Source: Candidatus Moraniibacteriota bacterium (GTDB lineage Bacteria; Patescibacteriota; Minisyncoccia; Moranbacterales; UBA1568). Taken from it: 64,000 nucleotides of DNA. The DNA lies in NCBI GenBank assembly GCA_963778555.1, contig CAVZUR010000003.1, positions 21,067-85,066 of the forward strand. The letters run 5' to 3'. The translations under genes were made by a program, and so were the position numbers. Shown piece after piece: positions 5,009-46,409 of this stretch (position 1 is its first letter; the number at the start of each line of letters is the position of its first letter). The notes under the pieces were generated by a model. It worked only from the letters and a program-made list of their open reading frames with translations. It had not been told where the DNA came from and did no database searches.

Positions 5009-5396
5009 AAAGCAACACTAAAGCTTACTGTTCCATTGTAACATATGAGCGTGCTATTCGAAGTGAGCTTTTTTGGTCGGGGCGCCGGGAATCCCCGCCT
5101 GCCGGACGGGCAGAGAACCCGGCCTACTCCGTGGTTTTCTCTCCCGAAAAACAGAGACGTTATTCGGGAAAACCCGTAAAAAGTGAAGCGGTTCACTTTT
5201 TACCCCCATGCATTTGTTTCTTTGTCGGAGCGCCGAGAATCGGTCACGCGTATATTTTCTGACGAAAATATCGCTCGACCCCGGCTCGGTATGTTCGCCT
5301 TTCACCGAAACGGCTCAAACTCACATAGACCTCCGCCTTTCGATTCCGGACGAAAGCCAAACTCTTGGCTTTCTCACCATCTTTCACTTCGCTCAG

Positions 5397-7049: not shown

Positions 7050-7122
7050 AAACACGTCGATTAGGAAAAACAATTACGCTGGGACTGTAACACAAAACCG
7101 GTCTGACTGCAAGAGGAAAGGA

Positions 7123-9442
7123 TTATGTTTCCCGTTGGCAGAAGTTTTCCCGACAATGATAGACAATGTCGCCATCCGTATCCGTCCGAAAGACGGCCGC
7201 TCCATGTGCCCGGAGACGCTCCAGGACCGCCGGATGCGGGTGGCCATAGCGATTCTCACCGACTGAGATAATCGCCTCTTTCGGTTGGATCAAATCAAGC
7301 AGCGCACTGCTGGTAGAATACTGCGAGCCGTGATGAGCCGCTTTCAGGACATCAATCGGCTCCAAATCCGGGATAAAGCGTTCCTCATCCGGCAAGTCCC
7401 CGGTCAGGAGGAAACTCATCTCGCCGAAATCGAAACGACTCACGACGCTCCCCTCATTCGTCTCAGGGACATCGGGCGGAAGTGGCGCATGCGGGTAGAG
7501 GACCGATAGTTTCCCTCCGCGCGGCAGCATGATCGTCGTACCGCGCAAGGCCGGGACGGTCCGCGCACCCTCGCGTTCCAGATCACGGTAAAAGAGAAAC
7601 GCCGACTTTGTATCCGTCCGTGCTCCAGTGTCGAGCACAGTCTTCACTCGATAGCGTTCCAAGAGAGCCGAAAGTCCGCCGATATGGTCGGCGTCAGGAT
7701 GCGTTGGGATGAGAGTCTCGATGGTCCGATCATAAAACGGAATATAGTGTCCGAGCCGCGAGAGGAGCAATCGTCCGTCCCGGCCGCCATCGATCACAAT
7801 CTGATTCATCCCCTGACTGATGAGGATGGCATCGCCTTGGCCCACCGAGAGAAAGACCACGCGCGTCTCGCTGGCGCTCTGCCGGATGCCGTACAGCCAC
7901 AGGCCGAAAACGAGCGCGAGCACCGCCATGAGACTCGTCACGACTGTTTTAGTGATCCATCCCCAGTACATAGCGTTTCCGTCGTCGTTCAAGCTGAGAG
8001 ACAGCCAGCCCCAAACCGACATACCAGAGTACGGCAAACAAGGGTTCGCTGTCGAGTCCGGACACGCTCGCCCACGGGAGCCGTGCTGCGCTCTCGGTCA
8101 GCCGGATGATGACGGCCAGCGGCAGCCAGAGGAACGGCAAGACGAGAAAGCCGAGGCCGGGAACGGCCAGCGTAACGAGGATAGCCGCGATACCGATGAA
8201 CATCGCCACCGGAACGAGCGGCAGCACGATGACGTTCGCGACTGGTGCCACGAGCGACAGTGTGCCAAAGGCTGAGACGATGACGGGCAGTGTAAAGAGT
8301 TCGATGATCACGGTCGTGAGAAAGAGGGCCGCGATTTTCCCGTACCACGGTCGGAAAATACCGAATGTCTCGAATGAACGCGCGAAGATGAGTAAGGCCA
8401 AAGTCGCCAGAAAGGACAGTTGGAACCCGACATCAAAGCGGATGAGGAGCGGATTGAAGGCAAGCATGATGGCAGCGGCGATGAGAAGCCCGTTCCAGGA
8501 CGCTGCCGGTCGGCCGACAAAGTACGCGCCAAAAGCCAGCCAGGCCATGAGGGCGGCGCGCAAAGACGCTGCCGAACCGTCGATAACGAGGAGGAACCCC
8601 GCCAGGCCGATGACAGCCAGTCCCACGGCCCATTTCCGCCACAGTCCCAGGATGAGCGAAAGGATGACCAGCCCTTCGGCGACGACGCTCATGTTGTACC
8701 CCGACACTGCGACGATATGCGACAGCCCGGCCCGGGCAAACGCCGCTTTCGTCTCCGGCGCCAGCGTATCGCTTCCGCCGATGAGCAGTCCCGTGAGGAG
8801 TCCCGACTCCGGTTCGGGCAACAGTGCATTCACTCGGTCCCGGAATCCGGATTGGATCCCAAAAAGTGTTTTTCTCAGACTGAAGCCATTGTCCGGCAAG
8901 CTTTCAATCCGACCTCCCCGGTCGCACGCGTAGCCCGTACCACGGCTCGCGAGGAGCATGCGGTAATCGAAGCCGGGCTCGAAGTTCTTTGGCCTCGATA
9001 GCTGGCAGGTAAAATCGAGCCACTCACCCGGCGTGCCGAGAAAATCAATCGGCGCACGATACAGAATATCCCCGCCCGGCCAGTCCGTATCAATCGGTCG
9101 CAGCGTCACCGGCCGATAGAAGACCTTTACCGCGCCACGTTCGATAACCTCAACTGGACCGGCGAATTCGACGGTCTCGGGCAGTGTCTGCCAGTGCTCG
9201 TCTGCCTGCACATACAAAAGCAGCCCGCCCCACAAAGCGAGAAGACTGACGGATCCCAATAGAATGTTCTGACGATCCGGAAAGAGACTGAAACCGATGA
9301 GCGCGGCCACCATGAGCAAGAGTCCGGCTACCACCGCCTCCGCCCCAAGCCAGGCCGACAGCGCCATGCCGCCCATCATTCCCAGCGCTATCCCACTCAC
9401 CCATCGCGACATATCCCGTCCGCGTCCCCTCCGTCCGCTCAC
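7123..9442 (-). CDS. comEC: DNA internalization competence protein ComEC/Rec2. Two parts (N-terminal DUF4131 plus competence TM domain, 497 aa; C-terminal metallo-beta-lactamase domain, 304 aa) overlap by 89 nt: an apparent frameshift near 7950-8037.
   Basis: N-terminal part has multiple TM helices and an OB-fold region. C-terminal part has the HxHxDH motif (THPDADHIGG) of MBL-fold ComEC. Confidence 0.8.
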
Positions 9443-9456
9443 TACGAATCAAAATA

Positions 9457-9909
9457 TCACTGATCGAATTTCTCCAGAGCACGGCGGAAGCCACGCGCGC
9501 TGCCGAAGGACTGGTACACGCTCGCGAAGCGGATATACGCCACTTCGTCTACGTCCTTCAGTTTATCGAGAACAATCGTTCCGATATCGCGGCTCGCGAT
9601 CTGATTCTTCTTCGCCCGCTCGGCGATAGTGTACTCGATGGCGCCGAGGAGCTTTTCCAATCGGTCTTCGGGCATCGGCCGCTTCTCGAATGCCTTGCGC
9701 AACCCCACCTCGATCTTCTTGCGCTCATAGGGCTGATGCTGGCCGTCTTTCTTGATGACGGACACACGAAAGAGCTCAGCCTGCTCATAGGTCGAAAACC
9801 GCGCCTGACACGACAGACACTCGCGCCTCCGGCGGATGACCCGGCCTTCGAGCGTTTCTCGCGAGTCGGTCACTTTCGATTCGGGATGATTGCAGAATGG
9901 ACAGCGCAT
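9457..9909 (-). CDS. nrdR: Transcriptional repressor NrdR
   Basis: MRCPFCNH...C..C zinc ribbon plus ATP-cone. Start placed at MRCPFC inside the longer ORF. Confidence 0.9.
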   Translation of the reverse strand: MRCPFCNHPESKVTDSRETLEGRVIRRRRECLSCQARFSTYEQAELFRVSVIKKDGQHQPYERKKIEVGLRKAFEKRPMPEDRLEKLLGAIEYTIAERAKKNQIASRDIGTIVLDKLKDVDEVAYIRFASVYQSFGSARGFRRALEKFDQ

Positions 9910-10008
9910 AGGCCAGAAAAATAGCTTGTCCCTCACTCTAGCAAATTGGCCACAAAAGAAAAGGCCACCCTGACATTGCAAGGCGGCACTGGAAAACAGG
10001 CGGGGGGG

Positions 10009-10407
10009 TCAACCGGTGGGACGAGGCGGGTCAACAAACGCTTGCCGAATCACCTCTGGGAGCAGCTCCGCAATGGACGACTTCAGGAAACAGGCCGTAG
10101 CGCCGCGCTGCATGACCGCCGCGACGGCACCCTCATTGAGGTCGGTGCTCATGAGAACGACCGGCAAGTGGCGAAGTGTTGGATCAGCCTTGATGGCTTT
10201 CAGCAATTCGAAGCCATTCAATCTCGGCATGTGGATATCGGAAATGACGAAGTCATACGGCGCGGCCCGGAGCATCTCGAGCGCAGCGAGACCGTCCACA
10301 GCGGTCGCGACCTGGAGAGAGCCGATTTCTACCAGATAGTTTCGGACTGCGTCACGGACCGCTGGGTGGTCATCGACGAGGAGGAATCTCAATTCGGCTG
10401 GATTCAC
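10009..10407 (-). CDS. Single-domain response regulator (CheY-like receiver)
   Basis: LLVDDHP...D...K receiver motifs; 132 aa. Confidence 0.8.
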   Translation of the reverse strand: MNPAELRFLLVDDHPAVRDAVRNYLVEIGSLQVATAVDGLAALEMLRAAPYDFVISDIHMPRLNGFELLKAIKADPTLRHLPVVLMSTDLNEGAVAAVMQRGATACFLKSSIAELLPEVIRQAFVDPPRPTG

Positions 10408-10434
10408 ACGGTTCTCCTTGAAATGGTTGGCGCG

Positions 10435-10863
10435 TCAGCCAGGTTGCTGGATGGCATCGATCTCGTAGACGGTGCAGCCGCCTTCGTCCAGTGCGACACA
10501 GTTCGCTTTCTGGGGTGGCAACTCCCGCGAGAGAGTCTTGAGAGCCGGTATGACCTCGGGACACTCTTCTGCGATGAGGGCGCAGACTTCCACTGTGACC
10601 GCACCTTGGGCGACAGGCTCCTGTCCCGCGTCCCGGTACGGCTGCCAATTGGCATTCGGCATGAGCTTATCGACGAGTCCGCGCCAACGGCTATCGACCT
10701 CGATGCAGACGATGACGAACTCGTCGTTCATCTGACCGCGGATGTGCAAGGAGCGGTACGCCAGATGCTGCAGCCGATCCATGCTCTGCGACACCATTTC
10801 ATGGCGCCGCGCCGCCGCCGGTGACAAATCCATGCCAATCGGTGTTGTTTGAGCACTCATGTT
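10435..10863 (-). CDS. Hypothetical protein (~142 aa), immediately upstream of the response regulator
   Basis: Start MSAQTT preceded by RBS AAAGGAGAGAG. No recognisable domain. Confidence 0.4.
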   Translation of the reverse strand, partial: NMSAQTTPIGMDLSPAAARRHEMVSQSMDRLQHLAYRSLHIRGQMNDEFVIVCIEVDSRWRGLVDKLMPNANWQPYRDAGQEPVAQGAVTVEVCALIAEECPEVIPALKTLSRELPPQKANCVALDEGGCTVYEIDAIQQPG

Positions 10864-11055
10864 GCTCTCTCCTTTGTTAAGGTAAGGTCCGGAATCGGAC
10901 AAGAAAAAATACCATGTTTCCCCCACTTTGTCTACCCACCCAAACAAAAACCCGAGGAGCTGCTCCTCGGGTCAATCAATCAGCGAAAAGAATTTTCTTT
11001 TGTTTTTGTTCGGTTTCCATAGTTACTCAGACTCTAGCAGGAAATAATGAAATAG

Positions 11056-11673
11056 TTACTTTTTCTCATTAATTTTAACCTCCATCTCTTGCTGACCATT
11101 CCAAGAAACAGATAGCTTTTTATCAAAACTACCTCCATTTTCAAGATAGAAAGTCAATGTTAATTCCGTTTCTCCTGTTTCTAGAGAATCAAATTTTCGG
11201 TTGCCACCACTATGAAGCGTCGATATCCTGACATTCGTGCCCCCATTAGCAACATCATGTGTGAGCACATCAAGATACGCAATTTGATCATGAACTATAT
11301 TTCTAGCCACTTCATTCACATGCGTCCAATTTAATGGAACAGAGAGGTATGGCGTCCTTTTATTCCCGCTCTCAATTATGCTTGTAACATCCACTTGTAC
11401 AAATCTTGCTGTCTCCTTTCCAGCATTTTTTATAGCAAGACGCCAATATTCATTTTCCTTCTGTACAAATTTTTCAATGTCATCAACAATAACCAGTCGA
11501 GGTTTAATTCCTATAAGAGGCTTTAGATATCGTCCGATTCCACTGGCAATAAGTAGCGCAACAAGTGAACTCCAAAATATCTCATTACCCAGAATTTCGA
11601 CTAAACTATCTATCGATTTAGTAATAATTTGACAGATTTCATCTGACATACAAGTGTGTTTAATCAGTATCAA
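11056..11673 (-). CDS. Hypothetical membrane-anchored protein encoded in an AT-rich islet (~37% GC vs ~60% flanks)
   Basis: 205-aa ORF with one N-terminal TM helix. Own rho-independent terminator at 10965-11000. Sharp compositional shift. Confidence 0.5.
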
Positions 11674-11700
11674 AAACGCCCCGGGTGGGGCGCTGGCACT

Positions 11701-12973
11701 TTATTTCTTCATCTTGCGGCGGATGAAGGCCGGAATCTCCAGGTCTTCCTCCTCGACGATGTCCTTCGACTCCTGCCGCAGGCCGAAACTCTTGGGCTGA
11801 ATCTTTTCTTCGATAATGAGCGGGGTTGGCTCGATCTGGCGCGAGGTGAAGGTCGTCGGCTCGCCCAGCGTATCCGCGACTTCGTCCTCGGGTTCCTCGC
11901 GGCGATAATTGGATGTCATCTGGCCGATAGTCGGGCTCTTGGCGCGCTGGACCAGGCCGATCGGCATTTCCTTCACCTTGCCGGAATCGAAACCGGTCGC
12001 CACGACGGTAATCTGAATGTCGCCCTTCCGGATCTGTTCGTCCACCACCGCGCCAAAGATGACTTTCGCGTTGGGGTCGATGTTCTCGGTGATGACATTG
12101 GCGGCCTCGTTGATTTCGAGCATGCCGACATCGGTCGAGCCAGAGATATTGAAGAGGACGCCTTTCGCCCCGTCGATAGAAATCTCGAGCAAGCGGGGAA
12201 TTGATGGCGGCGCGGGCGGCCTCGACGGCGCGGTTTTCGCCAGAGGCGATGCCGATACCCATGAGGGCGGAGCCGGAATCCTGCATGATGGCGCGGACAT
12301 CAGCGAAGTCGACGTTCACGATACCCGGCCGGGTGATGAGGTCGGAAATCCCCTGCACGCCCTGTCGCAGGACATCGTCGACGATGCGAAAGGCGGAGAT
12401 GAGCGTCGTCTTCCGGTCGATGATAGAGAGAAGCTTGTCGTTCGGGATGGTGATGAGCGTATCGACGCGGTCCTTCAGATTATTCAACGCTTCATCGGCG
12501 ATGGCACGGCGTTGGGAGCCTTCGAAGGCGAACGGTCGCGTGACGACACCGACGGTGAGGGCGCCGAGCTCTTTGGCGGTCTCCGCGACGATGGGGGCCG
12601 CGCCGGAACCGGTCCCGCCGCCGAGGCCACAGGTGACGAACACCATGTCGGCGCCTTTCAAGACTTCTTGGATCTCATCGCGGTTCTCTTCCGCGGCTTG
12701 ACGGCCGATCTCGGGATTCATCCCGGCGCCGAGTCCCTTGGTCAGATTCTTGCCGATGTGAATTTTCTCCTGAGCGCGCGAGTGATGCAGCGCCTGCGCA
12801 TCGGTGTTGATAGCGACGAATTCGACACCCTTGATCTTGGCATCGATCATCCGCGAAATCGCATTGCCACCAGAACCGCCGACGCCGACGACTTTGATTT
12901 TGGCGAACGTTTCGATGTCGGGTTTGATCTCGGCCATACGGGCTACTGTGTCATCAATCGTTAAATGAGTCAT
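11701..12973 (-). CDS. ftsZ: Cell division protein FtsZ, interrupted by a single-nucleotide indel in a C-run near 12190
   Basis: GGGTGSG tubulin signature in the 437-aa ORF. The C-terminal domain and conserved C-terminal peptide ([14 protein letters not shown]) are in overlapping ORF 11701..12300. The junction reads AINSPL|[10 protein letters not shown] with one extra base. Confidence 0.9.
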
Positions 12974-23943: not shown

Positions 23944-25110
23944 TTATTCCCGCCCCTTGATAACCGGAAACTCGATGCCAACCGTTTCATTATTTATGCC
24001 CATCATCGGCTTGTCAGTAGCGAGATCAAACCTTCCATCACCATTATCTTCATACATGATCGCAAAAAGAGTTTCGCCTTTTACGTTTCGAGAAAGCGGA
24101 ATATCGAAATAGTCTTTCTGCCTCTGCTGGTCCTTAAAGGTTTCCGCAAGCTCTGGGGTGTAAGTACCATTTTTCTTGGCCGATGCGATCATAAAAGGTT
24201 CTTCGAGGAGCGAATACGTCCCTAAAACTTTGCCGACACAGCCATCATTAGATTCGTGGATTGCCACCCACGCTGGCACATACGATCGGGCTACATATAC
24301 ATTCACGAGGTTGCCTGGAACCTGGTCGAAAAGCCCCAGGCCTTCCCATTTCGTTTTACCACTAAGATAAACAGATTGGTACTGATTGGCACTTACATCA
24401 GATTTGAAGCGCACCTTGATGAGGGCGGGGTCGGCAAAAGAGTAGCTATCGGTTCTACTTTTTCGCCTATAGGTTCTCACCTTGTCCTTAGAGCGGTCAA
24501 ACAGTCCATCCCCATCATCTTCATACAAGCTCGCATACACTTCGAATCTATCCATGTATCGACTCAAAGGGATGGCGAAGTCATCGTGAGTGCCTGCTGA
24601 CAAGGGATAAACCGCACTATCTTTTTTATCATCTACAGAACCAATGAGCGGGGGTCCGACCGTGACAAATCCGGCTTTCTGTAACTCCACATGCTTTACC
24701 CGTAAATTTCTTCCTGGCTCCTGTTCCGTAGAAATCTGGAAAAAGGCTGACTGATCCTCATCTATTTTCTGAAGTGATTGCTGCACCGCCATGGTAGAAG
24801 CAATTTCCCCGAAAAGGCCGCTTTTAGATTTAGTAATCTCTTCCTCCGACGCTCCCTCTTTTTTTGCTTGTTGGAATGCAGCCTCAAGTTCCTTCTGATA
24901 CTCCTCCATCATCTTCGCCGGTGTCATTACAAATGTTTTTGGCTTGAAACACTCTGACGAAGCCAATGGCTCGATTGGATTGGAAGTTTGAGAGACAACA
25001 CTCTGTTCCTGAGCGGATTTTGAAGGTTGTTTTAAAATATAAAAAGCAGCAACTCCCGTGAATAGAAGGCTTGCCGCTCCAACGACAACGATTGTTTTTA
25101 CCCAGGACAC
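23944..25110 (-). CDS. Secreted/membrane-anchored hypothetical protein with two repeats carrying Ca-binding-like DGDGxFD motifs. Lower-GC (~45%) islet.
   Basis: N-terminal signal anchor. Internal repeats IPLSRY...YEDDGDGLFDRSKDK and IPLSRN...YEDNGDGRFDLATDK. GC clearly below the flanks. Confidence 0.55.
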   Translation of the reverse strand: MSWVKTIVVVGAASLLFTGVAAFYILKQPSKSAQEQSVVSQTSNPIEPLASSECFKPKTFVMTPAKMMEEYQKELEAAFQQAKKEGASEEEITKSKSGLFGEIASTMAVQQSLQKIDEDQSAFFQISTEQEPGRNLRVKHVELQKAGFVTVGPPLIGSVDDKKDSAVYPLSAGTHDDFAIPLSRYMDRFEVYASLYEDDGDGLFDRSKDKVRTYRRKSRTDSYSFADPALIKVRFKSDVSANQYQSVYLSGKTKWEGLGLFDQVPGNLVNVYVARSYVPAWVAIHESNDGCVGKVLGTYSLLEEPFMIASAKKNGTYTPELAETFKDQQRQKDYFDIPLSRNVKGETLFAIMYEDNGDGRFDLATDKPMMGINNETVGIEFPVIKGRE

Positions 25111-25146: not shown

Positions 25147-27232
<2,086 letters not shown>

Positions 27233-27247
27233 AGGGAGATGAATTGA

Positions 27248-27652
27248 CTAGGAAGGACTCATTCGTCGGAACGTGAATTCCACTAGGAGCGCGAGAGCGA
27301 GTGCGAGGAGGGGCAGCCACCAGGTGAGGTAGCCCAGGAATTGAGCGAGAGCGACACCGGTGAGGAAGAGTCCGATGAGCGTGCCTTGTCGGAGCGCGCC
27401 CAGCTGGTACGCCTGTGCCATCTCGGTGTTCAGAAACTTTTCCGCCAGCGCGAGGAGGATGAGGACCACTAGCGCGAAGATGAGAAAAAACAGCGACGAG
27501 AAAAAGAGCGTTTGGCCCCAGACTGTCAGTGTGCTTGGATCCACCCCAAAAATGAAAACGCCGAGGACCCCGAGGGCCGCGAGCGCAGTGAGGCGGAGGA
27601 TGATGACCGAGGTATGGAGACGCATGAGAAAGGTACAGATAATCGCATTCAC
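27248..27652 (-). CDS. Hypothetical membrane protein (134 aa, 4 TM)
   Basis: ORF only; hydrophobic profile. Confidence 0.45.
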   Translation of the reverse strand: MNAIICTFLMRLHTSVIILRLTALAALGVLGVFIFGVDPSTLTVWGQTLFFSSLFFLIFALVVLILLALAEKFLNTEMAQAYQLGALRQGTLIGLFLTGVALAQFLGYLTWWLPLLALALALLVEFTFRRMSPS

Positions 27653-39074: not shown

Positions 39075-46138
<7,064 letters not shown>

Positions 46139-46409
46139 AGAAAAACACTCACGCCGCTCCGTCTTGTCCCTGGGAAGACAAGCCGGAAGTAGTGAGGATT
46201 ATGTTATTTACTTGTCCCGCCGGTCGAAAAATCGACTGTATGCATCACCCGAACTTTAAGCTAGTGAGGCCTATCGAAAAACCACTTTCTCCTTGAAAAA
46301 CAGTTTTTCGACAGACCTGTTGCTAGAAATCGAAAACTTTCTCTCGAGTACTGATGAGTCTAGCAAGGCCCGTATTTCCTGTCAAATAGCGAATAAAAAC
46401 CCCGGGGCT

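Follow-up and report, generated by a model that had tools for sequence, protein, structure and literature searches.

A one-gene, AT-rich islet downstream of ftsZ in a Candidatus Moraniibacteriota genome (contig CAVZUR010000003.1, positions 21,067 to 85,066; this stretch of 64,000 nucleotides is the window in what follows) is best explained as the foreign occupant of a recombination hot spot, and its product, P0001, as a membrane protein of a conflict or defence type. We put the probability of this combined reading at about 0.5. Its parts differ in strength. Horizontal gene transfer (HGT) into a recombination hot spot 3′ of the ftsZ terminator is very probable, and a defence-related function of the protein family, suggested by its association with restriction-modification (RM) loci, is a tentative proposal to which we give somewhat less than even odds. 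The cassette that carries the gene has a foreign composition, is missing from related species, has host regulatory sequence at its borders, and is represented by a distant allele in a close relative.

The G+C content (GC) of the window averages 55.1%, with a standard deviation of 4.2 percentage points among 300-bp windows, and its lowest stretch is located at positions 10801–11800, where the minimum is 36%. A 200-bp profile falls from 0.56–0.62 to 0.33–0.43 between about 10,900 and about 11,700 and recovers inside ftsZ. The sequence surrounding the islet has a GC of about 58–60% compared to 36% over positions 10975–11675 (35.8% to one decimal); the value is 37.5% for positions 10960–11690 and 36.7% for the open reading frame (ORF) itself. 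At third codon positions (GC3), this ORF has a GC of 0.27 versus 0.63 ± 0.08 for the 59 window ORFs of at least 150 amino acids (aa), which makes it the most extreme ORF of the window (z = −4.6). A drop in GC over roughly 700 bp was the starting point of an earlier note on this DNA, referred to below as the original prediction, and both windowed GC and codon usage bear it out. Furthermore, the Logan assembly of run ERR11593397 is 100% identical to the window over positions 9400–11991 and spans both junctions of the islet. As this contig is independent and identical across both junctions, and as a related locus (L130, described below) has a parallel architecture, we rejected the idea that the islet is an assembly chimera.

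Two start codons are available to the ORF, a TTG at 11673, which gives the 205 aa found in the ORF list and in the original prediction, and an ATG at 11649, which gives 197 aa. The predicted ORF exists, on the minus strand, but its length needs to be revised: the ATG is backed by the family alignment and by identical 197-aa gene calls in NCBI, ENA and Logan, and the TTG sits within the T-tract of the ftsZ terminator. The elements of the slot between ftsZ and nrdR, given in the order from the former to the latter, are as follows.

11701–12973, minus strand: ftsZ, the upstream core gene, with its stop codon at 11701–11703; reads frameshifted
11672–11693, minus strand: rho-independent terminator of ftsZ, GCGCCCCACCCGGGGCG followed by TTTTT (hairpin 11693–11677 plus T5); host sequence, upstream border of the cassette
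11039–11671, minus strand: variable cassette, consisting of the ORF with 22 nucleotides (nt) upstream and 17 nt downstream; without DNA similarity to L130
11056–11649, minus strand: the islet gene, encoding P0001, 197 aa from the ATG
11031–11039, minus strand: TGCTAGAGT, which resembles an extended −10 motif; forms the downstream border of the cassette, and host-like sequence starts here
10976–11020, minus strand: 14-codon stub, METEQKQKKILFAD and a stop codon; remnant 5′ end of a gene for an N-terminally anchored protein of 269–398 aa
10949–10973, minus strand: hairpin of a terminator, GACCCGAGGAGC-A-GCTCCTCGGGT, its T-rich tail reaching to about 10939; part of the host slot and not of the cassette
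10435–10860, minus strand: p141, a lineage-specific gene for 141 aa without a Pfam match and with host-like GC; older slot content
10009–10407, minus strand: single-domain CheY-like response regulator (Pfam Response_reg, E = 6.7e-23) with host-like GC; slot content
9457–9909, minus strand: nrdR, the downstream core gene

The borders of the cassette can be assigned to the host with the help of related loci, which we designate by the letter L and a number. The hairpin of the ftsZ terminator, 22 nt past which the ATG of the islet gene is found, is also present 3′ of ftsZ in L003, L004, L005, L006, L012 and L130. At the opposite border, the TGCTAGAGT 9-mer is one of two copies in the window, where 0.21 would be expected. 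The second copy (9935–9943) is upstream of nrdR, and homologous sequence precedes nrdR in L004 and the full-length slot gene in L136. The original prediction had credited the islet gene with a rho-independent terminator of its own. The hairpin in question (10949–10973) is, however, found directly 3′ of ftsZ in L007, L010 and L011 and 5′ of p141 in L133 and L136, all of which lack the islet gene, and it therefore belongs to the slot. With hairpins at 11693–11672 and 10973–10949, the AT-rich segment is thus placed exactly between two terminators.

The stub immediately downstream of the cassette is all that the window and L130 retain of a gene that formerly followed the cargo. The full gene is still present in the slot of L002, L006 and L136. 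In L136 (227–1069), the homologue of the stub starts with MEAEQKQKKILFAGLTILVLAG and extends over 280 aa as an N-terminally anchored protein; the full-length homologue of L002 (6336–7145) is 48% identical. The L006 protein (7081–8277) shares 90% identity with that of L136 over the first 41 residues and diverges from it completely thereafter, which suggests that a conserved membrane anchor is combined with a swapped body.

To place the slot in its clade, one genome per species was scanned with a frame-corrected FtsZ sequence. This resulted in 80 loci with FtsZ identities of 73–98%, nearly all of them titled Candidatus Moraniibacteriota or Moranbacteria. The gene order across these relatives is ftsA-ftsZ-nrdR-comEC, which is the ancestral one. 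The distance between ftsZ and nrdR was measured in the 66 loci that contain both genes on the fetched stretch: it is smaller than 400 bp in 45 and amounts to 0.7–4.9 kb in the other 21, where the gap is occupied by unrelated genes that are all co-directional with ftsZ. In none of the 80 related loci did tblastn find a homologue of the islet protein or of p141, and the profile hidden Markov model (HMM) of the family described below found nothing at E ≤ 1 in their six-frame translations. In the closest relatives (FtsZ identity of about 90%), the first gene past the ftsZ terminator is AT-rich and different each time.

L002: a 269-aa anchored protein, 39% GC
L003 (6352–7660; FtsZ identity 91%): a HipA-like kinase (Pfam HipA_C, E = 3e-7) and a 109-aa ORF, 42% and 39% GC
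L006: two small ORFs, 37% and 35% GC
L005: AT-rich sequence up to the contig end

AT-rich cargo is also present in the ftsZ-nrdR slot of L136. As a different AT-rich gene follows the ftsZ terminator in each close relative, the site is a recurrent landing place for foreign genes, and in this clade foreign genes, most of them AT-rich, pile up in the interval from the ftsZ terminator to the nrdR promoter, all in the same direction. Composition, absence from the locus in 80 related species, and the ancestral adjacency of ftsZ and nrdR all agree with the recent horizontal acquisition that had been proposed for the islet.

Two side observations concern these loci. The HipA-like kinase and the 109-aa ORF of L003 could represent a toxin-antitoxin pair that occupies this hot spot. 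Many of the metagenome-assembled genomes (L002, L004, L007, L008, L010–L012 and others) are titled 'uncultured Bdellovibrionales bacterium', a title that looks wrong: their FtsZ is 86–92% identical to that of Moraniibacteriota, and their gene order is the same ftsA-ftsZ-nrdR-comEC.

P0001 is not an orphan, as the original prediction had it and as a word-index search, which found only the protein itself, had seemed to confirm. An exhaustive phmmer search of 1.84 billion representatives with P0001 overturned this status: with a threshold of E < 1e-3 it returned 130 proteins, mostly of 185–240 aa, 34 of which had E < 1e-10, the best being 43% identical. The family is unannotated and comprises at least 130 clusters at 50% identity. 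Its alleles are extremely diverse, the 20 clusters checked at 90% identity all being singletons or nearly so. Organism names are attached to three members only, two from Candidatus Gottesmanbacteria and one from Candidatus Pacebacteria; most others are from metagenome contigs. A hand-built degenerate DNA pattern for R....N.G...A.{23}PL.WTH, which covers 62 of 133 members, matches the islet copy once in the window (0.00 expected). In JGI metagenomes it matches 44 stretches, each a true member by HMM (44/44, E ≤ 7e-28), and it has no match in 2.9 million IMG/VR viral contigs.

The composition of the family outside the window bears on the origin of the islet gene. In 29 unique family loci of at least 3 kb, the GC of the gene minus that of its flanks has a median of −2.7 points (range −7.1 to +4.6), and the median GC of the flanking contigs is 37%, with 24 of the 29 below 45%. 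The corresponding values are −18.6 points for the window and −15.3 points for L130. Since the family has host-like GC in low-GC contigs, the 36.7% of the islet gene is typical of the usual surroundings of the family. The donor would be a low-GC bacterium of the candidate phyla radiation (CPR), where the family is compositionally at home.

The best homologue of P0001, P0002 (197 aa, 42% identical), is encoded in the same slot of a close relative, L130 (ENA contig ERZ25039524:contig_54749). The identity of L130 to the window at the protein level is 98% for p141, 95% for the response regulator, 98% for NrdR, and 83% for the variable FtsZ C-terminus. A blastn comparison of the two loci gives three blocks.

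Window 12097–11672, equivalent to L130 1–429: 93.7% identity, ending at the terminator T-tract
Window 11038–10947, equivalent to L130 1219–1308: 85% identity
Window 10944–9206, equivalent to L130 2534–4312: 91% identity

Between the first two blocks, blastn finds no DNA similarity of window 11671–11039 to L130 430–1218, though both segments encode members of the family. The gene for P0002 has a GC of 43.3% within flanks of 58–60%. Because the flanks have diverged by 6–15%, the two genes could not have lost all nucleotide similarity by ordinary divergence in place. We read the pair as an ORF-sized allelic replacement, or as two independent captures, for which recombination within the conserved borders would have been the route. 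Aligned globally, P0001 and P0002 are 38% identical compared to 37% for the next sequence, so they are marginally each other's nearest relatives, and this marginal closeness does not separate descent in situ followed by a swap from two independent captures. The L130 slot also contains a truncated ParB.

The low-GC homologue at the same position in L130 is also what could be said for an old resident gene with merely biased composition. The original prediction had named low-GC homologues at this locus in all relatives as the sign of such an old, fixed gene. One was found, in L130, and none at the 80 species-level loci, where ftsZ is directly beside nrdR in 45 of the 66 measurable cases. Furthermore, the alleles of the two close relatives differ in GC (36.7% and 43.3%) and share no DNA similarity despite flanks that are 85–94% identical (91–94% in the outer two blocks), and the family has host GC elsewhere. 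Long residence is already largely refuted by these data, and we consider it very improbable.

Regarding the route of entry, the cassette would have been gained or swapped through homologous recombination in the conserved flanks. It has no target-site duplication and no flanking direct or inverted repeats beyond chance. No integrase is encoded in the slot (9,457–12,973), whose only genes are ftsZ, the islet gene, p141, the response regulator and nrdR, the remaining window not having been scanned for integrases, and the nearest tRNA is at position 5396, 5.6 kb off. The sole Rfam match in the islet, NsiR1, falls on the terminator hairpin and scores 27.3 bits against a cut-off of 39.

The slot contains repeated regulatory modules. 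The promoter-like TGCTAGAGT(G)AG element occurs in duplicate, ahead of nrdR and ahead of the stub gene (9935–9943 and 11031–11039, minus strand; compare L136 185–225), and in L130 (1170–1230) the TGCTAGAGT element is preceded by a degenerate copy of the GACCCGAGG terminator. Such repeated terminator-promoter modules may perhaps supply the homology for gain and loss of cassettes.

The older content of the slot is itself variable. Together, p141 and the response regulator are a module that is specific to the lineage and has host-like GC (window, L130, L133–L136), and the response regulator is missing at this position in most relatives; L133 has p141 without the regulator and L010 a regulator without p141. 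Of five contigs fetched for their p141 homologues, four end 90–330 bp (L133, L134, L135) or about 2.4 kb (L136) upstream of p141, with the ftsZ junction outside all four, which is consistent with population-level variability at that point. A search for other strains by exact NrdR match found only the same contigs.

The case for a defence-related function derives from the neighbourhoods of the family in other genomes, the most informative of which are the following.

L084: member directly upstream of hsdM-ORF6N-hsdS-DUF3644-DSPc-hsdR and downstream of a NACHT protein
L086: hsdM, member, hsdS, OLD nuclease, hsdR
L109: res-like gene, N6-methylase, small ORF, member, small ORF, hsdS
L089, L099 and L126: SNF2 helicase, member, type III mod-res and, further on, OLD nuclease
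L095: mod-res, small ORF, member
L091: EcoRI-type methylase, GmrSD/HNH, member
L137: hsdS and, further on, hsdR, HARE-HTH, member, DUF2726; Mrr and a Y1 transposase nearby
L138: PLD, HNH, XRE and TraG/VirB4-like genes near the member
L113 and L119: XRE helix-turn-helix (HTH) gene directly upstream of the member
L111: RHS-repeat protein upstream of the member

Serine recombinases are also found among the genes near family members. Among 122 neighbours within ±3 genes at 26 unique loci, the commonest Pfam families are ResIII, N6_Mtase, Methylase_S, HsdM_N, Resolvase and HTH_3. RM genes are present in 8 of the 29 family loci (273 kb) and in none of the 80 Moraniibacteriota ftsZ loci (797 kb); the Fisher p-value of 1.1e-5, obtained by a crude tblastn search with ten RM or defence proteins, is overstated, since family loci supplied the queries and every control locus is built around a core gene. 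Considering (i) that the family is found repeatedly in type I and type III RM operons or in other defence or mobile contexts, and (ii) that its diversity is extreme, with nearly every allele seen once, we favour a stand-alone accessory protein of a conflict or defence type, at the strength given at the outset.

No conserved partner gene, such as a toxin-antitoxin or two-gene Abi module would have, emerged from these loci: the neighbours fall into many unrelated clusters, and p141 has no homologue beside other members. Some preceding genes do recur. In two unrelated loci (L095 1704–2288 and L104 2578–3153), the gene just before the member encodes 191–194 aa with a zinc-ribbon-like CPxC...CxxC motif and without a Pfam match; in L116 and L123, this place is taken by a gene for 165–179 aa. 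Both proteins may be subfamily-specific partners. In L084 (342–3086), a 914-aa EAD8-NACHT-FGE-sulfatase protein, an unusual STAND NTPase architecture, is encoded three called genes (about 2.9 kb) upstream of the member and of the type I RM operon of the same island.

Members of the family share a variable N-terminus, one hydrophobic helix and a glycine-rich basic stretch, GGGGRxLKxLxxKPKL, followed by a domain with the motifs WRLxIxNxGxxxAxxV, NFLPxPLxWTH and RDIxPxQxxYLD. In P0001, these motifs read WRLxIKNxG, PLNWTH and QIAYLD, and the parts correspond to a hydrophobic helix at about residues 16–39, a basic juxtamembrane stretch, and a β-sandwich at about residues 50–195. With a best 19-mer Kyte-Doolittle score of 1.69, the helix agrees with the N-terminal membrane anchor of the original prediction. 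R70 and N75 are invariant in the family, and Q63, A81, P105, L106, W108, H110, R116, Q122, L126, D127 and G172 are conserved in at least 90% of members; P0001 retains every invariant or near-invariant residue. Sequence searches of Pfam, NCBIfam, PHROG, PADLOC and PDB gave nothing consistent for the protein or for 79 members, apart from a weak Pfam match to HYDIN/VesB Ig (E = 0.08), and the product has, as anticipated, no recognisable domain by Pfam. Domain fusions in longer members proved uninformative as a lead, a fn3-repeat match in P0015 being spurious.

An alignment-based AlphaFold (AF2) model of P0001, which replaced a discarded single-sequence model with a pLDDT of 36, has a pLDDT of 93.1 and a pTM of 0.81. 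It has three N-terminal helical segments (residues 2–45), after which about ten strands make up an Ig-like β-sandwich. Foldseek relates it only to generic combinations of a transmembrane (TM) helix with an Ig-like domain, such as archaellins and archaeal pilins, Kir channels, and ApaG-like or fn3-like domains; among viral structure models, one uncharacterised haloarchaeal virus protein stands out (TMq 0.58). The topology was derived from 98 members, in which the average number of K and R residues is 3.0 after the helix and 1.06 before it, and the 19-mer hydropathy exceeds 1.6 in 89%. By the positive-inside rule, P0001 is predicted to be a single-pass membrane protein with its N-terminus outside and its C-terminus inside (N-out/C-in), so that the sandwich would be in the cytoplasm.

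Should the defence-type reading hold, P0001 would be kept at the inner face of the membrane by its TM helix, and its Ig-like module would serve as a binding domain in the cytoplasm, where a conserved polar patch (R70, N75, H110, R116, Q122, D127) would bind a ligand or would sense or block a component of an incoming phage or mobile genetic element (MGE). The outcome could be exclusion at entry or cooperation with RM enzymes, the mechanism being a guess.

The same fold lends itself to a different use. A protein for the cell surface, for host interaction or for adhesion would display the Ig-like domain outside (N-in/C-out) under diversifying selection, with a role in episymbiosis or as a phage-receptor decoy. 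This fits the Ig-like β-sandwich with its CARDB-like RLxIxNxGxxxAxxV strand motif, the weak HYDIN/VesB Ig match, the extreme diversity of alleles, and the presence in the slots of relatives of other anchored proteins with swapped bodies, such as those of L006 and L136 that are alike only over their first 41 aa. It also fits the best structural matches, archaellins and archaeal type IV pilins (PDB 9eq7, 5z1l, 8fk7 and 6w8u), which likewise combine an N-terminal hydrophobic helix with an Ig-like β-sandwich. The TM-scores of these matches are low, however, at 0.30–0.48, and their sequence identity is mostly 10–12% (19% for 6w8u). The charge bias of the 98 members puts the C-terminal domain inside. 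The family has no class III signal peptide, prepilin peptidase or signal-peptidase motif, its N-termini being variable, of 0–45 aa, and acidic or neutral, and no pilus or archaellum genes were noted in the family neighbourhoods with listed domains. Furthermore, repeated placement within RM operons is unexpected for adhesins. We regard a surface role as unlikely relative to a cytoplasmic one of the defence type.

The position of the gene directly downstream of ftsZ in two genomes, together with the predicted topology, raises another alternative, a division factor that would anchor or inhibit FtsZ in the manner of ZipA, EzrA or phage Kil. ZipA is a bitopic protein of N-out/C-in topology, which is the one predicted here. 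Among the fetched family loci, however, only the window and L130 adjoin ftsZ, and in both cases the hot spot is the same one; the other contexts inspected contain no division genes, for which reason the ZipA/EzrA-like idea was rejected. In addition, most relatives divide without the islet gene, and the listed top 50 PDB matches include no ZipA, EzrA or SepF. A role in division is hardly credible.

Several points weigh against a foreign gene of the defence type. The RM enrichment control is partly circular, and about two thirds of the family loci have housekeeping or uninformative neighbours (RelA/SpoT, TopA, PPDK, aminoacyl-tRNA synthetases). The window copy itself has no defence neighbours, being surrounded by ftsZ, p141, the response regulator and nrdR. 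A PADLOC check was run, and PADLOC-DB v2 gave no match at E ≤ 10 for the protein and only scattered single matches (E ≥ 1e-3), nothing consistent, for the 79 members. The suggestion of an abortive-infection, defence or toxin gene in the original prediction gains indirect support from the RM genes at 8 of 29 family loci and none from known defence models or from neighbours in the window. The topology is based solely on the positive-inside rule, and the Ig-like sandwich is so generic, with its low-scoring matches to archaellins and pilins, that it leaves room for a surface role. The slight mutual closeness of P0001 and P0002 fits a single ancestral insertion followed by a swap equally well. Finally, no convincing promoter or Shine-Dalgarno sequence was found upstream of the ATG, which makes any expression of the gene putative.

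The last point is central to the idea that the gene is an unexpressed or decaying passenger, dropped behind the terminator by recent recombination and functionless in this host. No σ70-like promoter or Shine-Dalgarno sequence precedes the islet gene, unlike p141 and the response regulator, which have clear AGGAG-type sites, and the slot does show decay elsewhere, in the 14-codon stub of the window and the truncated ParB of L130. The ORF, however, is intact and identical in the Logan contig, keeps all invariant and near-invariant residues, and matches the family HMM from end to end (E = 1.3e-53). By our own estimate from base composition, 197 codons without a stop at 36% GC would arise by chance with a probability of about 6e-7. 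A functionless passenger is therefore an improbable explanation of P0001, and we retain the reading of a foreign gene for a conflict or defence-type membrane protein.

Oliveira, Touchon and Rocha reportedly set out, in 2017, the concept of chromosomal HGT hot spots, in which integration takes place between conserved core genes. The ftsZ-nrdR slot resembles such hot spots in that variable foreign cargo, which differs among relatives, is found between two core genes, with recombination in the flanks presumed and no integrase needed. It differs from them in that the swapped unit comprises one ORF, whose ends are no more than about 20 nt from the breakpoints, in that its borders are a terminator and a promoter-like motif, and in that the same protein family is found in the slot of two genomes as very divergent alleles. 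As judged from these features, the event is an ordinary HGT hot spot, if an exceptionally neat one. For Patescibacteria, published work describes HGT as well as genomic islands and type I RM systems carried on such islands (PMC12455944).

The family itself is unnamed and is a new candidate for a defence-island accessory gene, not a new kind of system. Accessory genes of RM operons and defence islands include the anticodon nucleases PrrC and RloC, which are encoded inside type I hsd loci, and Abi genes. Like them, family members are found in line in hsdM/hsdS/hsdR or mod/res operons, beside OLD, SNF2, GmrSD, Mrr and NACHT genes, and the family gene is small, single and highly variable. Unlike PrrC, RloC and Abi proteins, the family has no nuclease, ATPase or other enzymatic domain and no PADLOC match, and the window copy is not beside an RM gene. 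Proteins that exclude superinfection or block injection, such as lactococcal Sie2009, T4 Imm and Sp, HK97 gp15 and TP-J34 Ltp, are encoded by phages or prophages. The family resembles them in being small (about 200 aa or less), stand-alone and equipped with an N-terminal hydrophobic anchor, which would make for a plausible first-line barrier alongside RM. It differs from them in having no IMG/VR match and no PHROG match, and the comparison implies no relationship in sequence or fold.

A more specific, and more doubtful, version of the proposal is that the family is a hitherto unrecognised, Patescibacteria-centred, single-gene determinant against phages or other MGEs, a tethered cytoplasmic Ig-like module that would act with type I and type III RM systems or as a first line beside them, and whose many ancient alleles would be swapped ORF for ORF at hot spots like that between ftsZ and nrdR. 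It might even be the same as LdgA or DdgA, two defence proteins that are nearly exclusive to Patescibacteria, have no recognisable homology, and were obtained by functional metagenomic selection (PMC12366544); this identity is a lead only.

The locus is a clean case, resolved to the base pair, of a streamlined CPR genome that takes up or exchanges single genes beside an essential gene without mobile-element machinery. Patescibacteria (CPR) constitute a substantial part of bacterial diversity. The number of defence systems identified in them is small, and annotation is lacking for most of their small membrane proteins. The family is now defined by its compact size of about 200 aa, a high-confidence model and a diagnostic DNA pattern, and with its repeated placement in RM operons it is a defence candidate that lends itself to testing at low cost. 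Should a defence role not be borne out, the family is still a marker of fast-turnover membrane proteins in CPR bacteria.

Elsewhere in the window, a number of genes are interrupted. In ftsZ, one extra base in 'CCGCTTGCTCGAG' (12185–12195, minus strand), which is not a homopolymer, shifts the frame of a gene that is intact in relatives. The rpoB/rpoC genes (about 40,000–46,200, minus strand) and gyrB (about 25,280–27,250, minus strand) are broken into pieces of 125–250 aa in alternating frames; RpoB, for example, reads '...HYGRICP' and then turns into nonsense. Frequent indel errors in the assembly are the likely cause, a degraded genome being less likely, and care is therefore needed with ORF-level statements elsewhere in the window. 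The second-lowest GC of the window (42–43%) is reached at 23944–25110, where a minus-strand gene with a GC3 of 0.46 encodes 388 aa that include a hydrophobic anchor at the N-terminus; it may be another, older acquisition.

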